A DNA stretch of 64,000 nucleotides, from the NCBI GenBank assembly GCA_028278545.1, contig JANQED010000138.1, positions 29,237 to 93,236 on the forward strand, in the 5' to 3' direction. The stretch's first letter is position 1, and each line of letters starts with the position of its first letter. Positions 1 through 37,007 of the stretch are shown here, piece by piece. The translations under genes were made by a program, and so were the position numbers. Origin of the DNA: Anaerolineales bacterium (lineage in GTDB: Bacteria > Chloroflexota > Anaerolineae > Anaerolineales > UBA11858). Below the pieces are notes generated by a model. It searched no databases, was not told the DNA's origin, and saw only the letters and a list, made by a program, of their open reading frames with translations.

Positions 1-1541
1 GACTCAAGGTAGTCAGATGATTCAAAACAGGCAATAAAATCCAGACGGCCCGTTTCCAGTTCCGCGGACCAAATGCATTTTCCAGAGATATAGGTCAGGC
101 CTTTACCATCTGGCATCCAGGCAAGATCAGTTTTGATCGCGCCATCATTCGTCAATTGCTGCAAATCGCTGCCATCGACGTTCATGACCCAGATGTTGTT
201 ATCATTGATGAAGGCAATTTTGTCGGCACCGCCCAGCGTAAGCGCCTCTGGGGTGCTGGTAGCTGTGGCCTCGGGTGTATCTGTGGGGGGCGCTTCGGTA
301 TTTGTAGGGAGTTCTACGGTCGGTGCTGCCGTATCAGCAACACTGACTACCGCCTCTTCAGGCGTATTGGTGATGCCCGACTCCGACGGATCGGAAGGCT
401 GCAATATCGCGGCGGTTGATGTGGGCGGAGCAAGCGCCGCGGCAAGAGGGCCTCTGCCCTGGTAACCCATGAACGCCACTACAAGTACGATCACAGCCCC
501 AATCCCCAACAGGATAAAGCCGCCAATTGCGAAAGGCAACCAGCTCCTTTTGGGCTTTTCCGACAGGGGTGTCGGGGGAGGCGGCGGTGTCTGCTGGGGC
601 GGGGCAACAGCCTGTTGAGGTGCATAATCCTGTGGAACAGGGGGCTGTTGGGCCAACCGCGTGCCGGGCTCCTGGACGGCCGTCGTATCAGCCGATGCGA
701 GCGCGTGATGCGATCTGCCCTGTGCTGCCGATTGCAGGGCCTCACCCATTTCCTTCGCGGTAGCAAAACGGTCATCGGGGTCTTTTGCCAACGCCTTCAG
801 AAGCCATTGTCCCAACTCCGGCGGTATCTCAGGCATGATCAGAGCAAGATCAGGCACTGGCTCAAGGATGTGCTTCATCATCACTTTTGCCGGGGTGGTG
901 TCCTGATAGGGCGTATCCCCAACGAGCATTTGGTAAAAGATGATCCCTAAAGAATACAGGTCGCTGCGGCCATCTAATTCCTTCTCACCCTGGACCTGTT
1001 CAGGGCTCATATAGGCAGGTGTGCCAATGATGTTTTCACCCGTGAGCGTGTGGCTGCCATGCGTCAACCGGGCAATGCCAAAATCAGATAGATAAGCGTT
1101 ATCATACTGATCGAAGAGGATATTCCCAGGCTTCATATCACGGTGGATAATTCCTTTTCTGTGAGCGGCTTCTAGTCCAGAAGCCAAGCGTTCCGTGATC
1201 TTGGCGGCTTCCTGGAATGACAAGTTCCCGTCTCGGAGCTTGCCCGCCAAGTCCCCGCCTGACATCATGCGCATCACAATATAGGGCTGACCATCTTCCT
1301 CGCCAAAATCATATACCGGGACTATCGCGGCATGCTCCAACGCAGCGACGGTCTTGGCTTCCCGTTCGAAACGCGCTCGGAACTGCGGGTCATGCAAAAA
1401 AGCACGGGGAAGCACCTTGATAGCGACATCCCGTTCGAAGTTGGGGTCGTAGGCATGGTAAACGGTAGCCATCCCGCCACGACCGAGTTCACTTTTTATT
1501 TGGTAGCGACCAATCTTTTCAAGGGACATATCGTCTTCCAT
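1..1541 (-). CDS. Ser/Thr protein kinase (Hanks type): kinase domain, Pro-rich linker, single TM, extracytoplasmic PD40/TolB-like beta-propeller repeats; C-terminal end runs off the window
   Basis: My own minus-strand translation (open to position 1, so absent from the ORF track): MEDDMSLEKIGRYQIKSELGRGGMATVYHAYD, HRDMKPGNIL, DFGIA, GTPAYMSPEQ. TM segment WLPFAIGGFILLGIGAVIVLVVAF. C-terminal ADKIAFINDNNIWVMNVDGSDLQQLTNDG. Confidence 0.9.
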   Translation of the reverse strand, partial: MEDDMSLEKIGRYQIKSELGRGGMATVYHAYDPNFERDVAIKVLPRAFLHDPQFRARFEREAKTVAALEHAAIVPVYDFGEEDGQPYIVMRMMSGGDLAGKLRDGNLSFQEAAKITERLASGLEAAHRKGIIHRDMKPGNILFDQYDNAYLSDFGIARLTHGSHTLTGENIIGTPAYMSPEQVQGEKELDGRSDLYSLGIIFYQMLVGDTPYQDTTPAKVMMKHILEPVPDLALIMPEIPPELGQWLLKALAKDPDDRFATAKEMGEALQSAAQGRSHHALASADTTAVQEPGTRLAQQPPVPQDYAPQQAVAPPQQTPPPPPTPLSEKPKRSWLPFAIGGFILLGIGAVIVLVVAFMGYQGRGPLAAALAPPTSTAAILQPSDPSESGITNTPEEAVVSVADTAAPTVELPTNTEAPPTDTPEATATSTPEALTLGGADKIAFINDNNIWVMNVDGSDLQQLTNDGAIKTDLAWMPDGKGLTYISGKCIWSAELETGRLDFIACFESSDYLE

Positions 1542-3388: not shown

Positions 3389-3991
3389 CTACACCTGAGG
3401 ATTCTCCCTTACCAGGTAAATACCCGGCAGGCTGACCAACGTAGTCAATCCCTTGATGATCACATTGCTGACGAAAATCGACCAAACCACAGCATTTGGC
3501 AGCACCCCTCCAAAAGCCAGCCAGCTAAAGAGCAGGCTGTCCAGAGGGATGCTGAAAGCGTTGCTCACCAACACGCGCGCCCATTGATAATCGCGGGTGA
3601 CTCTTTCGACCCACAAACGGTAGCCTTCGGTGTCGACCATTTCCGCGATCACCTCAGCCACAATCGAGGCGAATACGATCCGCCACACGGGAGAGAGCAC
3701 CAGCCCAAACTCGGCTTGAGGGCCAACGGCCAGGTCCGGGGGCAGGATAGATGTCAACCAGAACAAGCCAGCCATGAGCAGGTTGAGCACCGCAGCGCTA
3801 ACGATCAACACCCTGGCGGCCTTAATGCCTGCCGTCTTGTGTACTAAATCCCGTAAAGTGAAAGTAAAAGGGTAGACAAACGTGCCCGCATCGATGGAAA
3901 ACCCGGCGATCATCACAATCCGCAGGCTGGCGACATCGGCCATCATTTGGAAGGCAATATACGCTGCGGATACGATCACTGCTGCTGTCAT
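3389..3991 (-). CDS. Queuosine-precursor transporter-like membrane protein (YhhQ/DUF165, VUT family)
   Basis: 200 aa, about 6 TM. VYPFTFTLRDLVHK block characteristic of the YhhQ family. Confidence 0.6.
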   Translation of the reverse strand: MTAAVIVSAAYIAFQMMADVASLRIVMIAGFSIDAGTFVYPFTFTLRDLVHKTAGIKAARVLIVSAAVLNLLMAGLFWLTSILPPDLAVGPQAEFGLVLSPVWRIVFASIVAEVIAEMVDTEGYRLWVERVTRDYQWARVLVSNAFSIPLDSLLFSWLAFGGVLPNAVVWSIFVSNVIIKGLTTLVSLPGIYLVRENPQV

Positions 3992-26100: not shown

Positions 26101-26925
26101 ATGTCCAAACTCAACGATTCCCAATACTTGCTCAAAGAGCAATACCAGGATGCTGAGAAGCTCAATGCCCGCATCCGTCTGCACGTCGAGTTCAGCACCA
26201 ACAAATACGGCTGGCTTCCCTGGGTTTTCGACCATTACAACCTACCCGAAGAGTGCCGCATCCTTGAGTTGGGCTGCGGACAAGGGGATTTATGGCGGGA
26301 GAACATCGAACGCATCCCGACTGGGTGGGAGGTTACCCTCTCAGATTTTTCACCCGGGATGCTGGCCCAGGCCCGGCAGAATTTGGAGGGGCAGCCCCAC
26401 CCCTTTACCTTCGAAGTCATCGACGCCCAGTCGATCCCCTACGATGACGATCACTTCGACGCTGTGATCGCCAACCACTGCATTTACCATTTCCCCGACC
26501 GGTCCAAAGCGTTCTCGGAGATTCGCCGCACGTTGAAAGCAGGCAGCTACCTCTATGCCACCACAATCGGCAGAGCGCATCTCCAGGGAATGGCGGAATT
26601 AGCTTCCAAATTTGAACATCCAATCGAGAATCTCTTCAACACCGATAATAATCCGTTTACGCTGGAAAATGGAGCACCCCAGCTTCGTGAATGGTTCGCG
26701 GATATAGAGCTTGACCGCTACCCAGATTCATTAGATGTGACCGAAGCCGCACCGCTGGTGGATTTCATCATCTCCAGCGTGCGATTCAGCCTGGACGAAA
26801 CCCGCCATGCTGAGTTTCTGACCTTCGTCGAGCGCGAGTTGACAGCCTCTGGAGGGGTGATCCGCATCAAGAAGGACAGTGGCATATTCAAGGCGCGCAA
26901 ACCCGCCTTACAGCACGAATCTTGA
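26101..26925 (+). CDS. Class I SAM-dependent methyltransferase
   Basis: ILELGCGQGDL motif I. An alternative upstream start lies at 26050. Confidence 0.75.
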   Translation: MSKLNDSQYLLKEQYQDAEKLNARIRLHVEFSTNKYGWLPWVFDHYNLPEECRILELGCGQGDLWRENIERIPTGWEVTLSDFSPGMLAQARQNLEGQPHPFTFEVIDAQSIPYDDDHFDAVIANHCIYHFPDRSKAFSEIRRTLKAGSYLYATTIGRAHLQGMAELASKFEHPIENLFNTDNNPFTLENGAPQLREWFADIELDRYPDSLDVTEAAPLVDFIISSVRFSLDETRHAEFLTFVERELTASGGVIRIKKDSGIFKARKPALQHES

Positions 26926-26950
26926 CGGATATCATTTCCAGTGCTAGACT
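26922..26950 (+). promoter_or_regulatory. Promoter of the Lys-leader/lysX unit
   Basis: TTGACG (26922-26927), 17-nt spacer ending in TGC, TAGACT (26945-26950). The leader ATG is 10 nt after the -10 box. Confidence 0.55.
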
Positions 26951-26960
26951 CCACCCCAAT

Positions 26961-27059
26961 ATGTTGATCTCTTTCGTGCACACCTCCGCCAAGAAGTCCA
27001 AGAAGAGCCAAAAGTCGCTGAGTTTTACGGCTTTCGGTCGTTTGAGGTTGCACGGATGA
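26961..27059 (+). CDS. Candidate Lys-codon-rich leader peptide (32 aa)
   Basis: My own translation: [32 protein letters not shown]. Five AAG codons fall within codons 11-18. The ORF lies between the promoter and an intrinsic terminator. Confidence 0.5.
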
Positions 27060-27104
27060 AATCTCTTACTTGATCGAACCAGTTACGATCTACGAACCGC
27101 CCTC

Positions 27105-27150
27105 TGGATTGAAAGCCGCAGAAGGGCGGTTTTTTGTTTTAGAAATTGGA
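27105..27150 (+). terminator. Intrinsic terminator (attenuator) immediately upstream of lysX
   Basis: AACCGCCCT (27105-27113) pairs with AGGGCGGTT (27133-27141), followed by TTTTTGTTTT. The lysX RBS and ATG follow at 27146-27160. Confidence 0.7.
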
Positions 27151-27159
27151 GGTAGCACT

Positions 27160-28119
27160 ATGACATCCCCGCATATCGGTATTTTATTCTCTCGAGTCCG
27201 CGTAGAAGAGAAATGGATCTTTGGGGCTTTAGAACAACGCGGGGTAAAGTTTACCCGCCTTAAAGACGATCAGATCAGGTTCGATCTGGAAAACAAGGGA
27301 GCCTGGTCACAATTCGATGTCCTCCTGGCGCGCAATCTCAGCTACACGCGCGGATTATACGCTTTGCGGGTGCTCAATTCCTGGGGGATTCCAACCGTCA
27401 ACAGCGCCCATGTGGCAGAGACTTGTGGTGATAAGTTGAACACCACGGCTGCGCTGGCACGCGCTGGGATACCGCAGCCGAAAACAGCAATCGCCTTCGC
27501 GCCAGAATCCGCCTTGGAGGCTATCGAGGAAATTGGCTACCCGGTGGTGCTCAAACCAGTGATCGGTTCCTGGGGGCGCTTACTTTCCAAGATCAACGAT
27601 CGCGATGCCGCCGAAACCATCCTGGAGCATAAATCCCTGCTCGGGTCTTACCAACATTCGGTCTTCTATGTGCAGGAATATATCGAAAAGCCCAGCCGGG
27701 ATATCCGCGCTTTTGTGATCAACAACGAAACAGTGTGCGCGATTTATCGCAACTCCGCTCACTGGATCACGAATACGGCGCGCGGCGCTTCAGGAGAGAT
27801 TTGTGTGGTGACCCCAGAGATCGACGATTTATGCGTGAGGGCCGCGAAAGCCGTAGGCGGCGGCGTCCTGGCGATAGACCTTGTCGAACACCCTCAAGAG
27901 GGCTTGCAGGTTCTCGAAGTTAATCACACCATGGAGTTTCATACGACTGTACCGCTCACGGGCGTAGACTTACCCAATATATTGATCGATTACTTATTGG
28001 ATGTGGCAAAGGGCAAGATAGACGATATCAGACAGCACACAATTGCTCCAGAACCACACCACCCTACGGAAACGATGTATTCCCCAACAACCTCTCGGCA
28101 GGAATCATTTAGGGCATAA
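27160..28119 (+). CDS. lysX: LysX-type ATP-grasp ligase (alpha-aminoadipate--LysW ligase candidate)
   Basis: 319 aa from ATG 27160 (GGAGG RBS). [24 protein letters not shown]..., ATP-grasp core. Close paralogue of 31326..32198. Confidence 0.8.
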
Positions 28120-28133
28120 CATAAAAAATCACC

Positions 28134-28162
28134 TTGACTAATCCATGCTAGGATGCTAGACT
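28134..28162 (+). promoter_or_regulatory. Promoter of the Arg-leader/argG unit
   Basis: TTGACT (28134-28139), 17-nt spacer ending in TGC, TAGACT (28157-28162). Same architecture as the promoter at 26922-26950. Confidence 0.55.
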
Positions 28163-28175
28163 TCGCCCTAATATC

Positions 28176-28265
28176 ATGGCAAACCCAATTATTGCAAACG
28201 TCCGTCGCGCTCGTCCTAAGAACCCGCCCCCCACCCGGGAAGGTCGGGCGTTTGTGTTTGGGTAA
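28176..28265 (+). CDS. Candidate Arg-codon-rich leader peptide (29 aa)
   Basis: My own translation: MANPIIANVRRARPKNPPPTREGRAFVFG. Five Arg codons, including CGT CGC GCT CGT, plus a PPP tract. Followed by an intrinsic terminator. Confidence 0.45.
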   Translation: MANPIIANVRRARPKNPPPTREGRAFVFG

Positions 28266-28304
28266 TCAGTAAAAGCAAACTACACGCTCTATTCTTGTAA
28301 GCAC

Positions 28305-28337
28305 AGCCCTCCTTCCCCAGGAGGGCTTTTTTATTTT
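28305..28337 (+). terminator. Intrinsic terminator (attenuator) upstream of argG
   Basis: AGCCCTCCT (28305-28313), 5-nt loop, AGGAGGGCT (28319-28327), then TTTTTTATTTT. Confidence 0.75.
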
Positions 28338-28411
28338 CGCCCGCGCCCCTCGCTTTCCCTCCCCTTGGGATGCTGGATGCAGCCGGGGTGAGCGCAAAAA
28401 AGGAGTATTTT

Positions 28412-29680
28412 ATGCCTACCCATCCTACCAAACCCGTCGAAAAAGTCGTCCTGGCTTACTCTGGTGGTCTGGACACCTCGGTGATCGTGCCATGGCTCAG
28501 GGAGAATTACGACTGTGAAGTGATCTGCTTCACCGCCGACCTGGGCCAGGGCGAGGAACTGGACGGCCTGGAAGAAAAAGCCCTCGCCAGTGGCGCCAGC
28601 CAACTGATCGTCAAAGACCTGAACGAAGAGTTCGCAAGCGATTTCTTGTTCCCTCTGTTGCGTTCTGGCGCTGTCTACGAGCGTAAATATCTGCTGGGCA
28701 CTTCTGTAGCACGCCCGCTGATCGCCAAGTACCTGGTCGAAGTCGCCCACCAGGTCGGCGCTGACGCCGTTTCCCACGGCGCTACGGGAAAAGGCAACGA
28801 CCAGGTGCGCTTCGAATTGACCGTCATGGCCCTCGACCCACGCCTGACTATCATTGCCCCTTGGCGAGAATGGGACATCCGTTCCAGAGAAGACGCCCTG
28901 ACATTCGCCGAGCAGCACGGCATCCCCGTGCCGAACACGCTCAAATCCATCTACAGCCGCGACCGCAACCTGTGGCATTTATCTCACGAGGGCGGCCCAC
29001 TGGAGGAGACATGGGTGGAGCCGGAGGAGTCTATGTACCTGCTCAGCGCCTCTCCAGAAGATGCCCCCGACCAGCCCGAATACATCGAAATCGAGTTCGA
29101 TGCCGGCACACCCACAAGCCTTAATGGAGAGGAAGTCACCCCAGCTCAATTGATCCACCAGCTCAATACCATCGGTGGCGTGCACGGCATCGGGCGCACA
29201 GACCTCGTCGAAAGCCGCCTGGTAGGCATGAAATCCCACGGGGTCTACGAAACACCAGGCGGCACAATCCTGACAGCCGCCCACCGCGAACTGGAATCAC
29301 TGGTGCTTGATAAAGCCACTATCCAATTCAAAGACATGGTGGCGCTCAAATATGCCGAATTGCTGTACAACGGTATGTGGTTCTCGCCGCTCAAAGAAGC
29401 CATCGACGCCTTCATGGACAACACCCAGGGCCCTGTCACCGGCACGGTACGCCTCAAGCTCTACAAGGGCAATATCATCCCCGTCGGACGCAAAAGCCCC
29501 TTCACACTCTACCGGGAAGACTTCGCTACCTTCGGGCAAGAAGATGTCTACGACCAATCCGATGCCGAGGGCTTCATCCGTCTCTTCGGGCTGCCGCTGA
29601 AAGTGCGTGCCCTCAACAATCTGCCCGTTTCGGGCCTGGATATGCCCAAACCAGACTATTCCAGGTTCAAGAGAGACTAG
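28412..29680 (+). CDS. argG: Argininosuccinate synthase
   Basis: [26 protein letters not shown]. Start moved to ATG 28412 (AAGGAG RBS). Confidence 0.96.
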
Positions 29681-29701
29681 TTCAGCATAACGGAGTGAAC
29701 A

Positions 29702-31081
29702 ATGTCCCTTTGGAAAGGTCGTTTTAACGGAAAGGCCGACGCGCAGATGTGGGAACTCAACGCCTCCATCAGCTTCGACCAGCGCATGGGGGTGCAGGAC
29801 GTGCGCGGCAGCCTGGCCTGGAGCAAGGCCCTGGAACTGGCCGGTGTTTTGACAGCGGACGAGCGGACTCAGCTCGAGGCTGGTCTGAACCAAATTGAGT
29901 CCGAGTTCCGCTTCCAAAAATTTACCTTCGTCCCCGAAGATGAAGACATTCACACCGCCGTCGAGCGCCGCCTGGGAGAATTGATCGGCCCGCTGGCGGG
30001 CAAACTGCACACCGGGCGCAGCCGCAACGACCAGGTTGCCACCGATTTGCGTCTGTGGCTGCTGGATCACCTCCCCAAACTGGTTGCCGCCATCGCCAAT
30101 CTACAGTCCGTCCTCATCCACCGTGCCGAAACAGACTTGGGCACCCTGATGCCCGGCTATACCCACTTGCAGCGGGCGCAGCCGATCCTGCTCAGCCATT
30201 GGTGGCTTTCCCATTTCTGGCCGTTGCAGCGCGACCTGGATCGTCTGGCCGCTTTGGAGCCGCGCATCGCCGTGCTATCCTTGGGAGCAGGCGCTTTGGC
30301 TGGTACTCCCTTCCCTATCGACCGCCACGCCCTGGCCGAAAGCCTGGGATTCGACCACCCAGCGCCCAACAGCCTCGATGCCGTCTCGGACAGGGATTTC
30401 GCCGCTGAATTCCTGTTCATCGCTGCGCTCACAGGCACCCATCTCAGCAAATTGGCTGAAAACATCGTCCTGTTTACCAGTGCGGAGTTCGCTTTCTTCG
30501 AGCTGGACGATGCTTACGGCACCGGGTCGAGCCTGATGCCCCAAAAGAAAAACCCCGACCCCTTCGAACTGGCCCGCGGTAAAGCCGGGACGCTGCTGGG
30601 GTATCTCAGCGGATTAATGGCGACGCTCAAAGGTCTGCCCTCGGCCTACGATAAAGACTTGCAAGAGGATAAAGTGCCCGTTTTTCAGGCCTTCGACACG
30701 TTAATGGCCCTACTGCCGGTCATGGCGAATGCACTGCGCACGCTGACGGTTTACCCCCAGAGAATGGAATCCGCTATCGACGCAGGTATGATGGCCACGG
30801 ACCTGGCAGATTACCTCGTGGGGCGCGGTATCCCCTTCCGGGAAGCTCACACCCTCACAGGTCAAGCCGTGAAGCTGGCCCTTGAAAAAGGGTCAACCCT
30901 GGAGGCGTTGACCCTCTCCGATTACCAGTCCCTCCACCCAGTTTTCGATGAATCCGTCTACGCGGTCTTCGACCCGCGGGGCAGCATCGCCCGTCGCAAG
31001 GCGTTCGGCGGAACGGCACCGGAAGCCGTGAAAGAACAGATCAAACAAGCCAAAGAGAAGTTGCAGGGCAGCAACGGGTAA
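29702..31081 (+). CDS. argH: Argininosuccinate lyase
   Basis: MSLWKGRF..., GSSLMPQKKNPD signature. Confidence 0.96.
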   Translation: MSLWKGRFNGKADAQMWELNASISFDQRMGVQDVRGSLAWSKALELAGVLTADERTQLEAGLNQIESEFRFQKFTFVPEDEDIHTAVERRLGELIGPLAGKLHTGRSRNDQVATDLRLWLLDHLPKLVAAIANLQSVLIHRAETDLGTLMPGYTHLQRAQPILLSHWWLSHFWPLQRDLDRLAALEPRIAVLSLGAGALAGTPFPIDRHALAESLGFDHPAPNSLDAVSDRDFAAEFLFIAALTGTHLSKLAENIVLFTSAEFAFFELDDAYGTGSSLMPQKKNPDPFELARGKAGTLLGYLSGLMATLKGLPSAYDKDLQEDKVPVFQAFDTLMALLPVMANALRTLTVYPQRMESAIDAGMMATDLADYLVGRGIPFREAHTLTGQAVKLALEKGSTLEALTLSDYQSLHPVFDESVYAVFDPRGSIARRKAFGGTAPEAVKEQIKQAKEKLQGSNG

Positions 31082-31149
31082 ACAAGAATTTCCCCTTTAC
31101 TGGTTATCTTGTTTACCTGCTGCTTGCCCACAAGAATAAGGAGTAGAAC

Positions 31150-31320
31150 ATGTCCCAGCTATCTTGCCCCGAATGTGTCGCTGATATCGAATTGGAAGCC
31201 GACACTGAACTAAACGAAATCATCGTCTGCCCAGACTGCGGCGTAGACCTGGAAGTGATCTCCCTGGAACCTCCCGCAGTGGAATTGGCCCCCATGGAAG
31301 AGGAAGATTGGGGCGAATAA
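31150..31320 (+). CDS. lysW: LysW/ArgW amino-group carrier protein (56 aa, below the ORF-track size cut-off)
   Basis: My own translation: [56 protein letters not shown]. CPxC...CPDC zinc ribbon and the hallmark C-terminal EDWGE. AAGGAG RBS. Confidence 0.9.
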
Positions 31321-31325
31321 CCACC

Positions 31326-32198
31326 ATGCCTAAACAACCCCGCATTGGCGTGCTCTATTCGCGGGTGCGCGTCGAAGAGAAGTGGATTTTCGCGGCCCTA
31401 GAGCAGCGCAACGTAGATTACGACCGCCTGGACGACCGCAAAATCCATTTTGATCTGAGCAACCCGGAACCCTGGCTGAAATACGACGCCATCCTGGAGC
31501 GCAGTATCAGCTACGCCCGCGGTCTATACTCCCTGCGTACGCTCAATTCCTGGGGCGTGCCCACAGTCAACACCGCTGCGGTATCTGAGGCCTGCGGCGA
31601 TAAAATCGCCACCAGCACCGCCCTGGCAAAAGCGAAAGTCCCCCAGCCGAATACCAGGATCGCCTTTACCCCTCAGTCAGCGCTGGAGGCTATCGAAACG
31701 CTCGGATACCCCGCCGTGCTCAAACCGGTGGTCGGCTCGTGGGGCCGGTTGCTGGCCAAGATCAACGACCGCGATGCCGCCGAAGCCATCCTGGAACACA
31801 AGGCTGTGCTCGGCTCGTACCAGCATTCGATCTTCTACATCCAGGAATTCATCGAGAAGCCTGGGCGTGACATCCGCGTGTTCGTTGTGGGCGACCAGGC
31901 CATAACCGCCATCTACCGCAAATCTCCGCATTGGATCACGAACACTGCCCGCGGAGGCATCGGTGAGATCTGCCCGCTGACATCAGAATTAGAGACCCTT
32001 TGCGGAGAAGCGGCGCGCGCCGTTGGGGGTGGAGTGCTGGCTGTGGACGTGATCGAGCACCCCGAGCGCGGTTACCTGATCAACGAAATCAATCACACCC
32101 TGGAGTTCAGCACGGCCCAGCCAACATCGGGCGTGGATATCGCCGGGATCATCGCGGATTATGTGATTGAAGTGGCAAAGGGAAGAAGCACAGATTGA
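31326..32198 (+). CDS. argX: LysX/ArgX-type ATP-grasp ligase (glutamate--LysW ligase candidate)
   Basis: 290 aa. [24 protein letters not shown]... Paralogue of 27160..28119. Immediately downstream of lysW, in the arg-leader-controlled unit. Confidence 0.75.
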
Positions 32199-32244
32199 GG
32201 ATCAGGCAATTCAGCCACCAATCTCAGATTCTGAAGGAAAATCT

Positions 32245-33279
32245 ATGATACGAGCAAGCATCATTGGCGGGTCTGGCTACACAGGGGGAGAATTGCTGCG
32301 GCTGCTGATCCATCATCCAAAAGTAGAGGTCATCCAGGCCACCTCGCGCCAGAAGCTGGGTGAGTATGTCTACCAAACCCACCCTAACCTGCGCAAGCAG
32401 ACCAGCCTGAAATTCACCTCTCCTGAGGAGCTTCAATCTACCGACGTGCTCTTCCTGGCTCTGCCTCATGGTCAAGCCCAACATGATATCGAACGGTATG
32501 CTGAACTGGCGGAACATATCATCGATCTCTCGGCAGATTTCCGCTTGCGGAACGCCGATCTCTATCTAAAATGGTACGGGGAAGCCCACGCAGCCCCCGA
32601 TTGGCTGACGAAGTTCGTATACGGCTTGCCGGAGCTGCACCGCACCGAGCTGCGCTCGGCTAATTACATCAGCGGGGTGGGCTGCAACGCCACCGCCGGG
32701 AATCTGGGGCTGCTGCCGCTGATTCGCGCCAACCTGCTTGACAGGGATAAACCCGTCATCATCGAACTAAAAGTCGGCTCATCAGAGGGGGGCGCAGCGG
32801 TGAATCCCGGCTCCCATCACCCCGAGCGCAGCGGCGTGGTACGCACTTACGCCCCTTATGGGCATCGCCACACCGCTGAGGTCATCCAGGAGATGGGGCT
32901 ACAAAACGTCACCCTGACCATGACCTCGGTTGGCATGGTGCGCGGCGCGCTGGCTACCGTCCACGGCTACGTCAACGAGGGTGTGGCACTCAAAGACCTG
33001 TGGCAAGCATATCGGAGCGCCGTCGCTGAGAATCCGTTCCTGCGGGTGGTCAAGGAACGCCGGGGAATCTATCGCGTCCCTGAGCCAAAAATCCTGGCGG
33101 GATCCAACTACGCCGATTTAGGCTTCGATTTAGACCCTGACACAGGGCACGTGATCTCGATTTGTGCCATCGACAACTTGATGAAAGGGGCTTCAGGCTC
33201 GGCCGTGCAGTCGATGAACTTAATGCTTGGCTTCGAGGAAACCCTGGGGCTGGAGTTCCCCGGCCTGCACCCTATTTAA
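32245..33279 (+). CDS. lysY: [LysW]-aminoadipate/glutamate semialdehyde-forming reductase (ArgC/LysY family)
   Basis: MIRASIIGGSGYTGGELLRLL, GCNATAG active-site Cys. Start moved to ATG 32245. Confidence 0.88.
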   Translation: MIRASIIGGSGYTGGELLRLLIHHPKVEVIQATSRQKLGEYVYQTHPNLRKQTSLKFTSPEELQSTDVLFLALPHGQAQHDIERYAELAEHIIDLSADFRLRNADLYLKWYGEAHAAPDWLTKFVYGLPELHRTELRSANYISGVGCNATAGNLGLLPLIRANLLDRDKPVIIELKVGSSEGGAAVNPGSHHPERSGVVRTYAPYGHRHTAEVIQEMGLQNVTLTMTSVGMVRGALATVHGYVNEGVALKDLWQAYRSAVAENPFLRVVKERRGIYRVPEPKILAGSNYADLGFDLDPDTGHVISICAIDNLMKGASGSAVQSMNLMLGFEETLGLEFPGLHPI

Positions 33280-33298
33280 ATTTGGACGAGGAGCAGAT

Positions 33299-34141
33299 AT
33301 GACCAACCCCCGGTCAGGGACATTTGATCACCAATCTATGATCGTTGTAAAGCTCGGCGGTGCTGAGGGCGTGGATTTTTCGGCCATCTGCCAGGATGCA
33401 GCCGCGCTGTTGGAGCAAGGTCAACGCCTGGTTTTGGTGCACGGCGGCTCAGCGGAGGCCAACGCTTTAGGAGAAACTATCGGGCATCCCCCTCGTTTTG
33501 TGACCTCCCCTTCAGGCTTCACCTCCCGCTACACGGACCGCAAAACCCTTGAGATTTTCGCCGCGGCGGTAAACGGTAAGATCAATACCCTTTTAGTGGA
33601 ACAGCTTCAGAGGCTGGGCGTAAACGCATTTGGCCTGAGCGGTCTCGATGGGCGGCTGATGGTCGCCAAGCGCAAGGCTGCCATCCGCATCATTGAAAAC
33701 GGGAAGCGCAAAATATTGCGTGATGACTACACCGGAAAGATCCAACAGGTCAATGCGCAGTGGCTTATGACGCTGTTGGGGTCAGGAATCACCCCTGTGA
33801 TCGCCCCGTTAGCAGTCAGTGAACTGGGCGAGGCCCTCAACGTCGACGCCGACCGGGCAGCGGCCATGATCGCGGCGGCCTTGAAAGTCGATACGCTGTT
33901 GTTGCTGACTGCTGCCCGGGGCCTGCTGAAGGGTTTCCCCGACGAGAGCACGCTCATCAAAAAGATGTCAACGTCAGACCTGGAAGGCGCGTTGGAAATT
34001 GCCCAGGGCCGAATGAAAAAAAAGGTGCTCGGCGCGCAGGAAGCGCTGACAGGCGGCGTGGCTAAAGTGATCATCGCCGACGGACGAGTACAGAAACCTA
34101 TCAGCAACGCATTGGAAGGGAATGGAACGGTAATTCTATGA
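33299..34141 (+). CDS. lysZ: [LysW]-aminoadipate/glutamate kinase (ArgB/LysZ family)
   Basis: IVVKLGGAEG, VLVHGGS amino-acid-kinase motifs. Start moved to ATG 33299. Confidence 0.85.
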   Translation: MTNPRSGTFDHQSMIVVKLGGAEGVDFSAICQDAAALLEQGQRLVLVHGGSAEANALGETIGHPPRFVTSPSGFTSRYTDRKTLEIFAAAVNGKINTLLVEQLQRLGVNAFGLSGLDGRLMVAKRKAAIRIIENGKRKILRDDYTGKIQQVNAQWLMTLLGSGITPVIAPLAVSELGEALNVDADRAAAMIAAALKVDTLLLLTAARGLLKGFPDESTLIKKMSTSDLEGALEIAQGRMKKKVLGAQEALTGGVAKVIIADGRVQKPISNALEGNGTVIL

Positions 34142-34770
<629 letters not shown>

Positions 34771-34794
34771 CTACCAAGTGAACAAGTTAAGCCT

Positions 34795-35952
34795 ATGAGC
34801 ATAAAAACTATCGAAACCCAACACACATCTGGCGTATATGCCAAGCGCGACCTGACCATCGTGCGCGGCGCAGGGGCAACGCTCTGGGATGACCAGGGCC
34901 GCGAGTTTATCGACTGCGTCGGTGGGCAAGGCGCTGCCAACCTGGGCCACACCCATCCGGCCATCGTTGCGGCGCTCACCGAGCAGGCCAATAAACTGAT
35001 CACCTGCCCAGAGATGTTCTACAATGACCGCCGGGCAGAACTGCTCTCCCGGCTGACCAGCCTGGCGCCTAAAGGAATGCAGCGGGCCTTCCTGACCAAC
35101 TCAGGCACGGAAGCCGTAGAAGCGGCCTTCAAGTTCGCCCGCTTCAGCACCCAGCGCAGGAAAATCATCGCCGCAATGCGGGGTTTCCACGGGCGTACCA
35201 TGGGGGCCCTCTCAGCTACATGGAATAAAAAATATCGCCAACCCTTTGCCCCCCTGGTGCCCGATTTTGAACACGTGCCATACAATAACCTGGGAAAGCT
35301 GGCAACTGCCGTAGATAACCAAACAGCAGCCGTGGTTTTGGAAGTCGTCCAAGGCGAAGGCGGTGTCCACCCCGGCACGACTGAATATCTCCAGGGAGCG
35401 CAAAAGCTCTGTCGAGAGCACGGGGCCCTGCTGATCCTGGATGAGGTCCAAACCGGCTTCGGACGCACAGGTAAATTGTTCGCTTTGGAGCATCATGGTC
35501 TGCGCCCCGACCTGCTTTGCCTGGCGAAATCTATTGCTGGAGGAGTGCCCATGGGCGCAGTGCTCCTTGGGGAGCGCGTGAACGAGCTCACCCCAGGCAT
35601 CCATGGTTCAACGTTTGGGGGTAATCCCCTGGCCGCATCCGCCTCCCTGGCAGCGCTGGAAGTGCTCGAAACCGAAACGCTCCCTCAACGAGCGGCGCAA
35701 CTTGGGGATTACTTGATCAACGAACTGCGCAGCATTGAGTCCCCTCTCATCCGCGAAGTGCGTGGCCTGGGTCTGATGGTCGGCATCGAAATCAAAGCTA
35801 AAGTGGCTCCCTACCTGAAAGCGCTGACCAAGCGCGGCGTGCTGGCCCTGCCTACAGGTTTGACCGTTATCCGCCTGCTGCCGCCCTTGGTGATCACGCG
35901 GGAGCAGCTAGCGAGCGTAGCGAGCGCGTTACAAGAAGTGCTGACCGAATGA
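34795..35952 (+). CDS. lysJ: [LysW]-aminoadipate semialdehyde / acetylornithine-type class III aminotransferase (ArgD/LysJ)
   Basis: [31 protein letters not shown] Lys in LAKSIAGG. Start moved to ATG 34795. Confidence 0.88.
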
Positions 35953-37007
35953 CCGACGAACGGTTCGACCACCAGACCCTCATCGAACTCGTACGCCACT
36001 ACAGCCCTTCCGGCTCTGAAGCCCAGGCAGTGGCCTATCTCATCGAACGCATGCAGACTTTGGGGTTCGAGCGTGCCTTTCGAGATGAGGCTGGCAACGC
36101 AGTGGGGATGATCGGCGAGGGACCTCGGCAGGTGATCCTGCTTGGACACATTGACACTGTCCCCGGAGAAATTCCCTTCTGTATAGAAGATGGCACCCTC
36201 TATGGCCGCGGTTCGGTAGATGCCAAAGGGTCTTTGGCCGCCTTTGTGGATGCAGCTACGGCTGTTGGTCCCGTGGAAGGTTGGCAATTCGTGGTCATCG
36301 GCGCAGTAGATGAAGAACGCCATTCCACTGGGGCGCGTTACGTGGCCAATCAATATCGTCCTGATTTCGCCATCATCGGCGAGCCCTCCCGGTGGGACCG
36401 CATTACAACGGGCTATAAAGGCAGCGCCTGGGCCGATATCACCGTACGACGGCCCATGTCTCACACCGCCGGGGGAGATGAGAACGCTCCCGAGGCCGCA
36501 GTGGGAATCTGGAACCGCGTACGTGCCTGGGCAGATGAGTTCAACGCTCAGCACCAGAGAGCGTTCGATCAGGTACTGCCCAAACTGGATAGTATTACCT
36601 CGGGCGACAGTGACTTCGAGACCTGGGCCAAGCTGCGGCTGGGCGCGCGCCTGCCTCTAGCTGTATCCCCAGAAAGCTGGTACCAAACCCTGCAGAGGCT
36701 GGCATCCCCAGAAAAAATCAGCCCCACCGGGTACGCCATCCAAGCATATCGAGCGGAGAAAAACAACTCCCTTGTGCGAGCATTTTTGGGCGGGATTCGT
36801 GCTACAGGGGGCAAGCCGGGATTCGTGGTCAAGACCGGTACGGCTGATTTGAACATCGTCGCGCTAAAATGGGGTTGCCCAGCAGTTGCCTACGGGCCAG
36901 GGGATTCGAACCTGGATCACACCCCCAACGAACATCTTTCATTAACCGAATACCGCCAATCGGTCAACGTCCTTCGACACGTGCTGGGGAGGTTATCGAA
37001 ACGATAA
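35949..37007 (+). CDS. lysK: [LysW]-lysine/ornithine hydrolase (M20 peptidase, ArgE/LysK family)
   Basis: [20 protein letters not shown]20 metal-binding motifs. ATGA overlap with lysJ. Confidence 0.85.

Follow-up and report, generated by a model that had tools for sequence, protein, structure and literature searches.

How does an Anaerolineales bacterium (Chloroflexota) control argG? The question is raised by the DNA just upstream of that gene, where a promoter is followed by a very short open reading frame (ORF) with clustered arginine codons and then by an intrinsic terminator. The locus was analyzed within a stretch of 64,000 nucleotides from contig JANQED010000138.1 (assembly GCA_028278545.1, positions 29,237 to 93,236 of the forward strand), referred to below as the window and numbered from its first base. 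Repression by ArgR/AhrC at ARG boxes is the usual bacterial control and the textbook case for arginine biosynthesis. The comparative and folding evidence assembled here points to a different answer: with a probability of roughly 80%, the element is judged to be an arginine-responsive, ribosome-mediated transcription attenuator of the argG operon.

A conserved leader with clustered arginine codons

In the window, a sigma-70-type promoter found by consensus scan (28134..28162, forward strand; -35 TTGACT, a 17-nt spacer and an extended -10, TGcTAGACT) precedes a leader ORF at 28176-28265 on the same strand, which comprises 29 codons and a stop and has the predicted product MANPIIANVRRARPKNPPPTREGRAFVFG. 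Three of its five arginine codons fall inside a putative regulatory cluster, CGT CGC GCT CGT (R R A R), read from the sequence at 28203..28214 on the forward strand, and codons 17-19 specify a Pro-Pro-Pro (PPP) tract. An intrinsic terminator follows, and beyond it lies argG. A first-pass annotation of this DNA had proposed an arginine-sensing leader peptide at this position. The parts it named are all in the sequence where it placed them: the promoter at 28134-28162, the 29-codon ORF with five arginine codons (three of them within four consecutive codons) and a proline tract, the terminator and the argG ATG.

Conservation was assessed with one genome per species. The best 80 argG relatives are 80 Anaerolineales loci with ArgG identities of 74-89%, the species genome closest to the window by this protein standing at 89%. 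Nearly all 80 loci carry, upstream of argG, a small ORF with an arginine cluster and then a strong terminator. A covariance model, R1, built from 77 copies of the element, was run on the 80 loci. In 79 of them it scores a single copy, at 28-140 bits, immediately ahead of argG; for the 80th, only 77 nt of upstream sequence were at hand. An exact DNA-pattern scan of metagenome contigs gave a further 80 readable loci, about 70 of them with the leader ORF, and every one of the 59 metagenome copies with enough downstream sequence adjoins argG. About 10 metagenome hits away from argG were set aside as chance matches in high-GC coding sequence, with no leader ORF. No second copy of the arginine leader was found before other genes in 81 sources, and the weak R1 hits elsewhere are either reverse strands of terminators or the paralogous lysine and threonine leaders described below. 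When the argG upstream regions are aligned, the ORF, the in-frame arginine cluster and the terminator all prove to be conserved, which carries the proposed leader well beyond a single genome. By this comparison the arrangement of the element is far beyond chance.

Several features of the alignment bear the marks of translation. The leader ATG is invariant across all 78 aligned copies, and its distance to the arginine cluster shifts by whole codons only (18, 21, 24, 27, 30, 33 or 39 nt). The cluster is always in frame, taking the form R-x-R-R or R-R-x-R about eight codons into the ORF in nearly all 80 loci, and at least 3 arginine codons are found within 5 codons in 75 of 77 leaders. The cluster codons themselves vary synonymously within a narrow set: all 222 are CGT (167), CGC (40) or CGA (15), with zero CGG, AGA or AGG. 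CGU, CGC and CGA are all decoded by the inosine-containing tRNA-Arg (ICG isoacceptor). The middle codon of the cluster is free, specifying S, T, A, V, I, P or G. Among the arginine codons of the window genes, CGC accounts for 50% and CGT for 14%. The invariant start, the whole-codon indels and the synonymous arginine variation together suggest that the leader is translated.

Outside the arginine cluster, the leader peptide itself is not kept. Its N terminus is variable, the cluster is the only part conserved in a single frame across leaders, and searches of the peptide against NCBIfam and Pfam gave no match. A GAAGGTYGGG block in the 3' half of the ORF is nearly invariant yet is read in all three frames (30, 25 and 22 of the 77 leaders), producing, for example, ..EGRAF.., ..KVG.. 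or ..RRLG.. in different species. Given this use of three frames, what is conserved in that half appears to be the RNA, not the peptide. The two arginine codons of the window leader that lie outside the cluster (R21 and R24) sit in this conserved RNA block and are best read as accidents of frame.

How the leader would be translated is indicated by its spacing from the promoter. The first-pass annotation missed that no Shine-Dalgarno sequence precedes the small ORF. The ATG lies 13 nt past the -10 in the window and 10 nt past it in most relatives, and TTGAC(A/G)-N17-TAnAnT precedes the leader ATG in 74 of 77 relatives. In most species the ATG context is ..ccgcccaatATG, exactly 10 nt after the TAnAnT hexamer; the leader of a cultured relative, Longilinea arvoryzae KOME-1 (locus L053), starts MYRHLVMPRSRRPHPTS. 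With an ATG only 10-13 nt past the -10 and no Shine-Dalgarno sequence, the leader mRNA must, on this evidence, be leaderless or near-leaderless, and its translation would be so as well.

A terminator and a competing antiterminator

The intrinsic terminator (28305..28337, forward strand) has a 9-bp stem, AGCCCUCCU/AGGAGGGCU, a UCCCC loop and a U-run. At the DNA level, its G+C-rich hairpin reads AGCCCTCCT / TCCCC / AGGAGGGCT at 28305-28327 and is followed by TTTTTTATTTT to 28337. Over 78 copies, 92.4% of cells are paired and compensatory changes occur at 9 of 10 pairs, with 0 of 500 shuffles reaching the observed values. The terminator already noticed upstream of argG is therefore a conserved structure.

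A second helix uses part of the same RNA. Its 5' strand, segment 2 (28237..28260, forward strand), comprises GGGAAGG (28237-43), GGGC (28246-49) and UGUGUUUG (28253-60). Its 3' strand, segment 3 (28298..28317, forward strand), comprises UAAGCACA, GCCC and CCUUCCC and overlaps both the left arm and the loop of the terminator. The core pairing joins 28237-28249 (GGGAAGG..GGGC) with 28306-28317 (GCCC.CCUUCCC). In minimum free energy (MFE) folds of the window sequence, the helix extends further through pairing of UGUGUUUG (28253-28260) with UAAGCACA (28298-28305).

The 2:3 helix is visible whichever way the sequences are aligned: 88.7% of its cells are paired on a sequence-only MAFFT alignment and 89.5% on an alignment fitted only to the terminator. 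Slid partners used as controls reach 41-70%, and 0 of 500 shuffles attain the observed covariation score. Alignment columns 77 and 196 covary, being G-C in 31 sequences and A-U in 26. One of these partners belongs to the loop of the terminator, so its covariation with segment 2 cannot be accounted for by the terminator by itself. On this evidence, segments 2 and 3 define the predicted antiterminator. RNAalifold run on the full alignment predicts the terminator alone, a result that is expected where two structures compete.

Folding of successive portions of the leader shows how the two structures could alternate. The MFE structure of the full leader combines a 5' helix (1:2) with the terminator. 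When the nucleotides up to 28228 are removed, which mimics a ribosome stalled on the arginine cluster, the MFE structure of the remaining 28229-28340 is the antiterminator, at -34.9 kcal/mol, even though the right arm of the terminator is present. When 77 homologues are masked in the same way and the right arm is also omitted, 75 of them fold with 6 or more of the 11 core 2:3 pairs. As regards the attenuator put forward by the first-pass annotation, its arginine-codon leader and its terminator are strongly supported by comparison and folding; the covarying antiterminator, which folding finds to be exclusive with the terminator, had gone unnoticed, and the role given to the proline tract is not supported, as discussed below.

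The spacing of these parts is compatible with a ribosome footprint. In most copies, 20-25 nt separate the last arginine codon from segment 2, a distance at which a stalled ribosome would leave segment 2 free. The stop codon falls downstream of segment 2 in 73 of 77 leaders (in the window at 28263..28265 on the forward strand, 13 nt past the segment 2 core) and at least 23 nt before segment 3 in 77 of 77. Because of this stop position, an undelayed ribosome would occupy segment 2 while segment 3 and the right arm of the terminator are being made; once at the stop codon, it would cover the 3' portion of segment 2.

A model for arginine-responsive attenuation

In the proposed mechanism, transcription would start a few bases before the AUG, and a ribosome would load at the 5' end of the RNA and trail RNA polymerase. 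When charged tRNA-Arg (the ICG isoacceptor) is plentiful, the ribosome would cross the cluster at 28203-28214, cover segment 2 and reach the stop at 28263. With segment 2 covered, 2:3 pairing would be precluded, the terminator would form, and transcription would end before argG. When arginyl-tRNA is scarce, the ribosome would be expected to stall on the cluster and cover about 28190-28228, so that segment 2 would stay free to pair with segment 3. The terminator would then be blocked, and polymerase would enter argG-argH-lysW-argX-lysY. The predicted response in vivo is thus a reduction of argG operon transcription when arginine is abundant.

Some points weigh against this attenuation model. 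The leaderless start that it calls for is deduced from promoter spacing and the missing Shine-Dalgarno sequence. The preference for CGT in the cluster could come partly from constraints of RNA pairing, not from tRNA choice. The most substantial point concerns the anti-antiterminator, the 1:2 helix. A single family-wide helix in the CCCACTTC/GAAGGTTGGG register was tried and rejected (73% paired, with no covariation), and the predicted duplex between segment 2 and the 45 nt upstream is no stronger in energy than one with shuffled sequence (p = 0.49), because the upstream region is simply C-rich. The pairings that can be identified are specific to clades, and a role for the 1:2 helix is plausible but unproven.

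Two such clade-specific pairings can be described. In the window, the candidate segment 1 (28194..28204, forward strand) comes from the full-leader MFE fold, pairs with 28245-28255 and overlaps the first arginine codon; in the window clade, about 15 close relatives keep 7-10 of the 11 pairs of this AAACGTCCG/CGGGCGTTT helix. The largest clade has a different candidate, in which the arginine codons CGTCGTCC can pair with GGAYGAYG, a sequence that doubles as the 5' strand of the antiterminator extension. Even with no 1:2 helix, the switch would be workable on kinetic grounds.

Alternative explanations

The terminator and antiterminator are the best-supported parts of the element and the 1:2 helix is without statistical support, a balance that also suits a genuine switch set by a trans-acting factor or ligand, with the ORF incidental. 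This explanation is unlikely. An incidental ORF would leave unexplained the invariant ATG at a fixed distance from the -10, the whole-codon indels, the synonymous arginine codons around a free middle codon and the extension of the ORF past segment 2 in the same 73 of 77 leaders. It would also leave unexplained the lysine and threonine codons of the paralogues, which match their downstream pathways. The two hairpins are the only conserved structured domains, and no known RNA family was recognized: against Rfam, the whole window gave no match at gathering score, and permissive E-values added only sub-threshold hits driven by terminators.

A second explanation places the sensor in the nascent peptide. 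The sequence R-x-R-R-P-x-P would either sense free arginine or stall the ribosome intrinsically, like the fungal arginine attenuator peptide (AAP), TnaC or SpeFL, and PPP would add a pause dependent on elongation factor P (EF-P). R.RR followed by P-[KRHQ]-P is indeed common in one large clade, and the window leader has PPP, but across the family the residues after the cluster vary widely (RRPK, RRTK, RRKK, RRMI, RRIF, RREN) and the proline codons coincide with a C-rich tract. The logic would also be wrong, in that a stall at high arginine would expose segment 2 and turn a biosynthetic operon up. A nascent-peptide sensor is considered quite improbable.

The first-pass annotation had suggested that the polyproline tract could cause EF-P-dependent pausing. 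As a conserved feature this was rejected, since only 6 of 77 genomic leaders and none of 71 metagenomic ones contain PPP, and other species read the nucleotides behind it in the two remaining frames. The C-rich tract (CCGCCCCCCACCC; 28224..28236, forward strand) codes for PPPT in the frame of the window and is kept in composition only, so PPP is best understood as a clade-specific by-product, the frame-0 reading of C-rich RNA. The tract is a possible alternative partner of segment 2. In two loci, L053 (~3834-3850) and L075 (~3797-3817), a hairpin that segment 2 forms with the C-rich tract has a T-run after it, e.g., TTCCCAGAGAAGGTTGGGAG CTTTTTGTTT, and a simple terminator finder picks this hairpin over the real terminator. 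It might be a pause site that synchronizes ribosome and polymerase.

A third explanation is that the terminator is constitutive, ending the lysX transcript or a small RNA, that the ORF is there by chance and that argG is controlled elsewhere, for example by ArgR. The window gives this some footing, as no separate terminator stands between the end of lysX (28119) and the leader. Across the family, however, no more than about 13 of the 80 loci have lysX upstream, against 79 with the element, which has its own conserved promoter and a covarying antiterminator that implies conditional read-through. Control through ARG boxes, a competing account raised along with the original proposal, was looked for with an E. 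coli-type consensus only (TNTGAATWWWWATTCANW-like). The best site in the window has 5 mismatches, and from -130 to +200 around the leader ATG in 77 loci the mean best mismatch is 5.10 compared with 5.17 in shuffled sequence, so ARG-box-like sites of this consensus are not enriched near the promoters and leaders. A constitutive terminator is very unlikely.

That the small ORF encodes a functional micropeptide, such as a cofactor or carrier of the LysW pathway or a ribosomally synthesized and post-translationally modified peptide (RiPP) precursor for the ATP-grasp enzyme encoded directly upstream in the window, is the least probable reading and can be dismissed for practical purposes: the C-terminal half changes frame, the N terminus is variable, neither Pfam nor NCBIfam has a match, the ATP-grasp neighbor is missing at most loci, and the true carrier, LysW (..EEDWGE), is encoded at 31150-31320.

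The regulated genes

The genes downstream of the attenuator fit its proposed specificity in that they lead with two enzymes of arginine synthesis. The argG gene (28412-29680, forward strand) has its ATG 75 nt past the terminator, with a strong AAGGAG Shine-Dalgarno sequence ahead of it, and is followed in the ORF list by argH (29702-31081, forward strand); the scores of both products exceed the NCBIfam equivalog cut-offs. Next come lysW (31150-31320, forward strand), which encodes the Zn-ribbon carrier protein with its C-terminal EEDWGE, and, as identified with Pfam and NCBIfam, a second LysX-family ligase gene, putatively argX (31308-32198, forward strand), and lysY and lysZ (to 34141, forward strand). 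The genes lysJ and lysK (34687-37007, forward strand) follow after a gap. By its content, this row of genes is the LysW carrier-protein route to ornithine and lysine. The stretch from argG through lysZ (28412..34141) would form one operon under the leader, possibly joined by lysJ and lysK. The order argG-argH-lysW-argX-lysY is kept in most of the relatives' loci with enough sequence. Between lysZ and lysJ, an ORF of 119 amino acids on the reverse strand (34142-34501) breaks the otherwise co-directional arg/lys row.

Two LysX-family ATP-grasp ligases are encoded in the window (27160-28119 and 31308-32198), and both top the LysX equivalog cut-off, at 340 and 338 bits. The models cannot separate them, and their assignment as LysX and ArgX is drawn from the lysine and arginine leaders and from gene order. 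The end of lysX lies 15 nt upstream of the -35 of the arginine leader, and the terminator of the arginine attenuator probably also ends the lysX transcript. In transcripts from the promoter of the lysine leader, the AUG of the arginine leader would be an internal one that lacks a Shine-Dalgarno sequence.

Lysine and threonine leaders of the same design

The window holds a second leader of this kind. The lysine leader (26922-27135) lies 1.2 kb upstream of the arginine leader and before lysX (27160-28119). It shares the promoter type, has a terminator and appears to start leaderless. It carries AAG AAG TCC AAG AAG (KK.KK) where the arginine leaders carry CGN codons. Its promoter and first codons (CTTGACGGATATCATTTCCAGTGCTAGACTCCACCCCAATATGTTGATCTC) match those of the arginine leader of another species, L001, at all but 4 of 51 positions (about 92% identical), and its 3' half is weakly matched by the arginine-leader model (18 bits, E about 1e-4). 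By these resemblances, the lysine leader is a paralogue of the arginine leader with swapped codons, which suggests that attenuator specificity changed by duplication and codon replacement. A pattern scan of the window for further attenuators of the same design returned the lysine and arginine leaders only.

More examples come from the loci of other species, where the shared module reads TTGACA-N17-TAGAAT-accgcccaat-ATG. In L073 (~510-696, forward strand), L037 (3445-3620, reverse strand) and L050 (412-590, reverse strand), leaders of the form ..EAKAKR.. or ..DAKSKR.. with TAGAAT-accgcccaat-ATG and a terminator precede a homocitrate-synthase/isopropylmalate-synthase-like gene with a C-terminal regulatory domain; they are probably lysine attenuators of the alpha-aminoadipate pathway. 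In L074 (3479-3640, reverse strand), a leader, MYNLLTNTKHGLGMTMTTTSGTHREAFVLGQK, with a run of threonine codons (..TMTTTSGT..), the same promoter and start module and a terminator precedes an aspartate kinase gene; it is probably a threonine attenuator of the same family.

Since the lysine, threonine and arginine leaders precede matching genes, the identity of the clustered codons tracks the downstream pathway, as expected if each attenuator is specific to one amino acid. The leaders for arginine, lysine and threonine in many species share a strongly conserved stretch of 10 nt (c/a-c-c-g-c-c-c-a-a-t) that links the -10 to the leader ATG; these positions have no explanation as yet, and their counterpart in the window is 28163-28175. 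The G+C-rich discriminator and the AAU-AUG context may set the start of transcription for leaderless translation, or may confer growth-rate or stringent control.

Implications

If the attenuation model holds, arginine joins the amino acids that are sensed through ribosome stalling. It would also mean that several pathways in Anaerolineales, a largely uncultured group that is abundant in the environment, are governed by attenuation of leaderless transcripts. The lysine and arginine leaders would then offer a natural example of a change in specificity on the same scaffold with different codons, and the arginine leader could provide a compact arginine-responsive switch for engineering. The covariance model could then serve to annotate such small ORFs and their regulons in metagenomes.

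A full-text literature search found no arginine leader peptide, argG attenuation or Chloroflexi attenuator, with incomplete coverage, so that an earlier description is possible. The control mechanism appears to be undescribed for arginine or for this phylum. The odds are judged to lie somewhat in favor of this being the first described arginine-sensing leader-peptide attenuator and, with the lysine and threonine leaders, the founding family of leaderless-ORF attenuators in Chloroflexota, built on one promoter and start module with the codons swapped.

Comparison with known attenuators

Known leader-peptide attenuators respond to Trp, His, Leu, Ile/Val, Thr, Phe, Cys and Lys. The arginine leader resembles the enterobacterial trpL, hisL, leuL, thrL, pheL and ilvL leaders in having a short ORF with tandem codons for the end product and mutually exclusive hairpins. 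As in the trpL/hisL type, an intrinsic terminator stands before the first biosynthetic gene, and the codons sit ~20 nt ahead of the antiterminator 5' strand. It differs from that type in its use of arginine, in the lack of a Shine-Dalgarno sequence, in an ORF predicted to lie at or next to the 5' end and in its occurrence in Chloroflexota (Anaerolineales); in addition, no conserved 1:2 pause or anti-antiterminator hairpin could be demonstrated. It has no sequence relationship to the leaders in Rfam, the best of which, Phe_leader, scores 24.6 bits against a gathering score of 55.

A leader-peptide attenuator for lysine (the alpha-aminoadipate pathway) has reportedly been described in Thermus thermophilus. 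It is alike in belonging to a gene cluster for a LysW-type carrier pathway outside Proteobacteria and Actinobacteria, and the lysine leader of the window is its direct analogue. The Thermus leader senses lysine and belongs to another phylum.

Two further systems share the apparent purpose of the arginine leader and reach it by other means. ArgR/AhrC likewise shuts off the pathway when arginine is plentiful, through a protein-DNA mechanism. In the fungal AAP (the arg-2/CPA1 upstream ORF), a conserved nascent peptide senses free arginine and blocks scanning ribosomes. Both have an upstream ORF through which arginine controls a gene for its own synthesis, a response that is predicted in the bacterial case; here the arginine codons are conserved, not the peptide, and the output is transcription termination.

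In mycobacteria, leaderless polycysteine short ORFs form the first cistron and use consecutive cysteine codons to sense cysteine and control the operon (bioRxiv 10.1101/834739). They share with the arginine leader a short ORF, predicted to be leaderless in the arginine case, and consecutive codons for one amino acid. The arginine leader differs in its clear pair of intrinsic terminator and antiterminator, its unrelated sequence family and its phylum. In Salmonella, consecutive arginine codons in orf34, upstream of speF, sense arginine via ribosome pausing and refold the mRNA (PMC6386406). That ORF has two such codons and is Shine-Dalgarno led, and it controls ornithine decarboxylase via RNase G decay, Rho termination and masking of the ribosome binding site (PMC6386406). 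It does not serve arginine biosynthesis and makes no use of an intrinsic terminator. Set beside these systems, the leader upstream of argG is known in kind, as a trp/his-type attenuator, and new in its predicted arginine specificity, its apparently leaderless ORF and its place in Chloroflexota.

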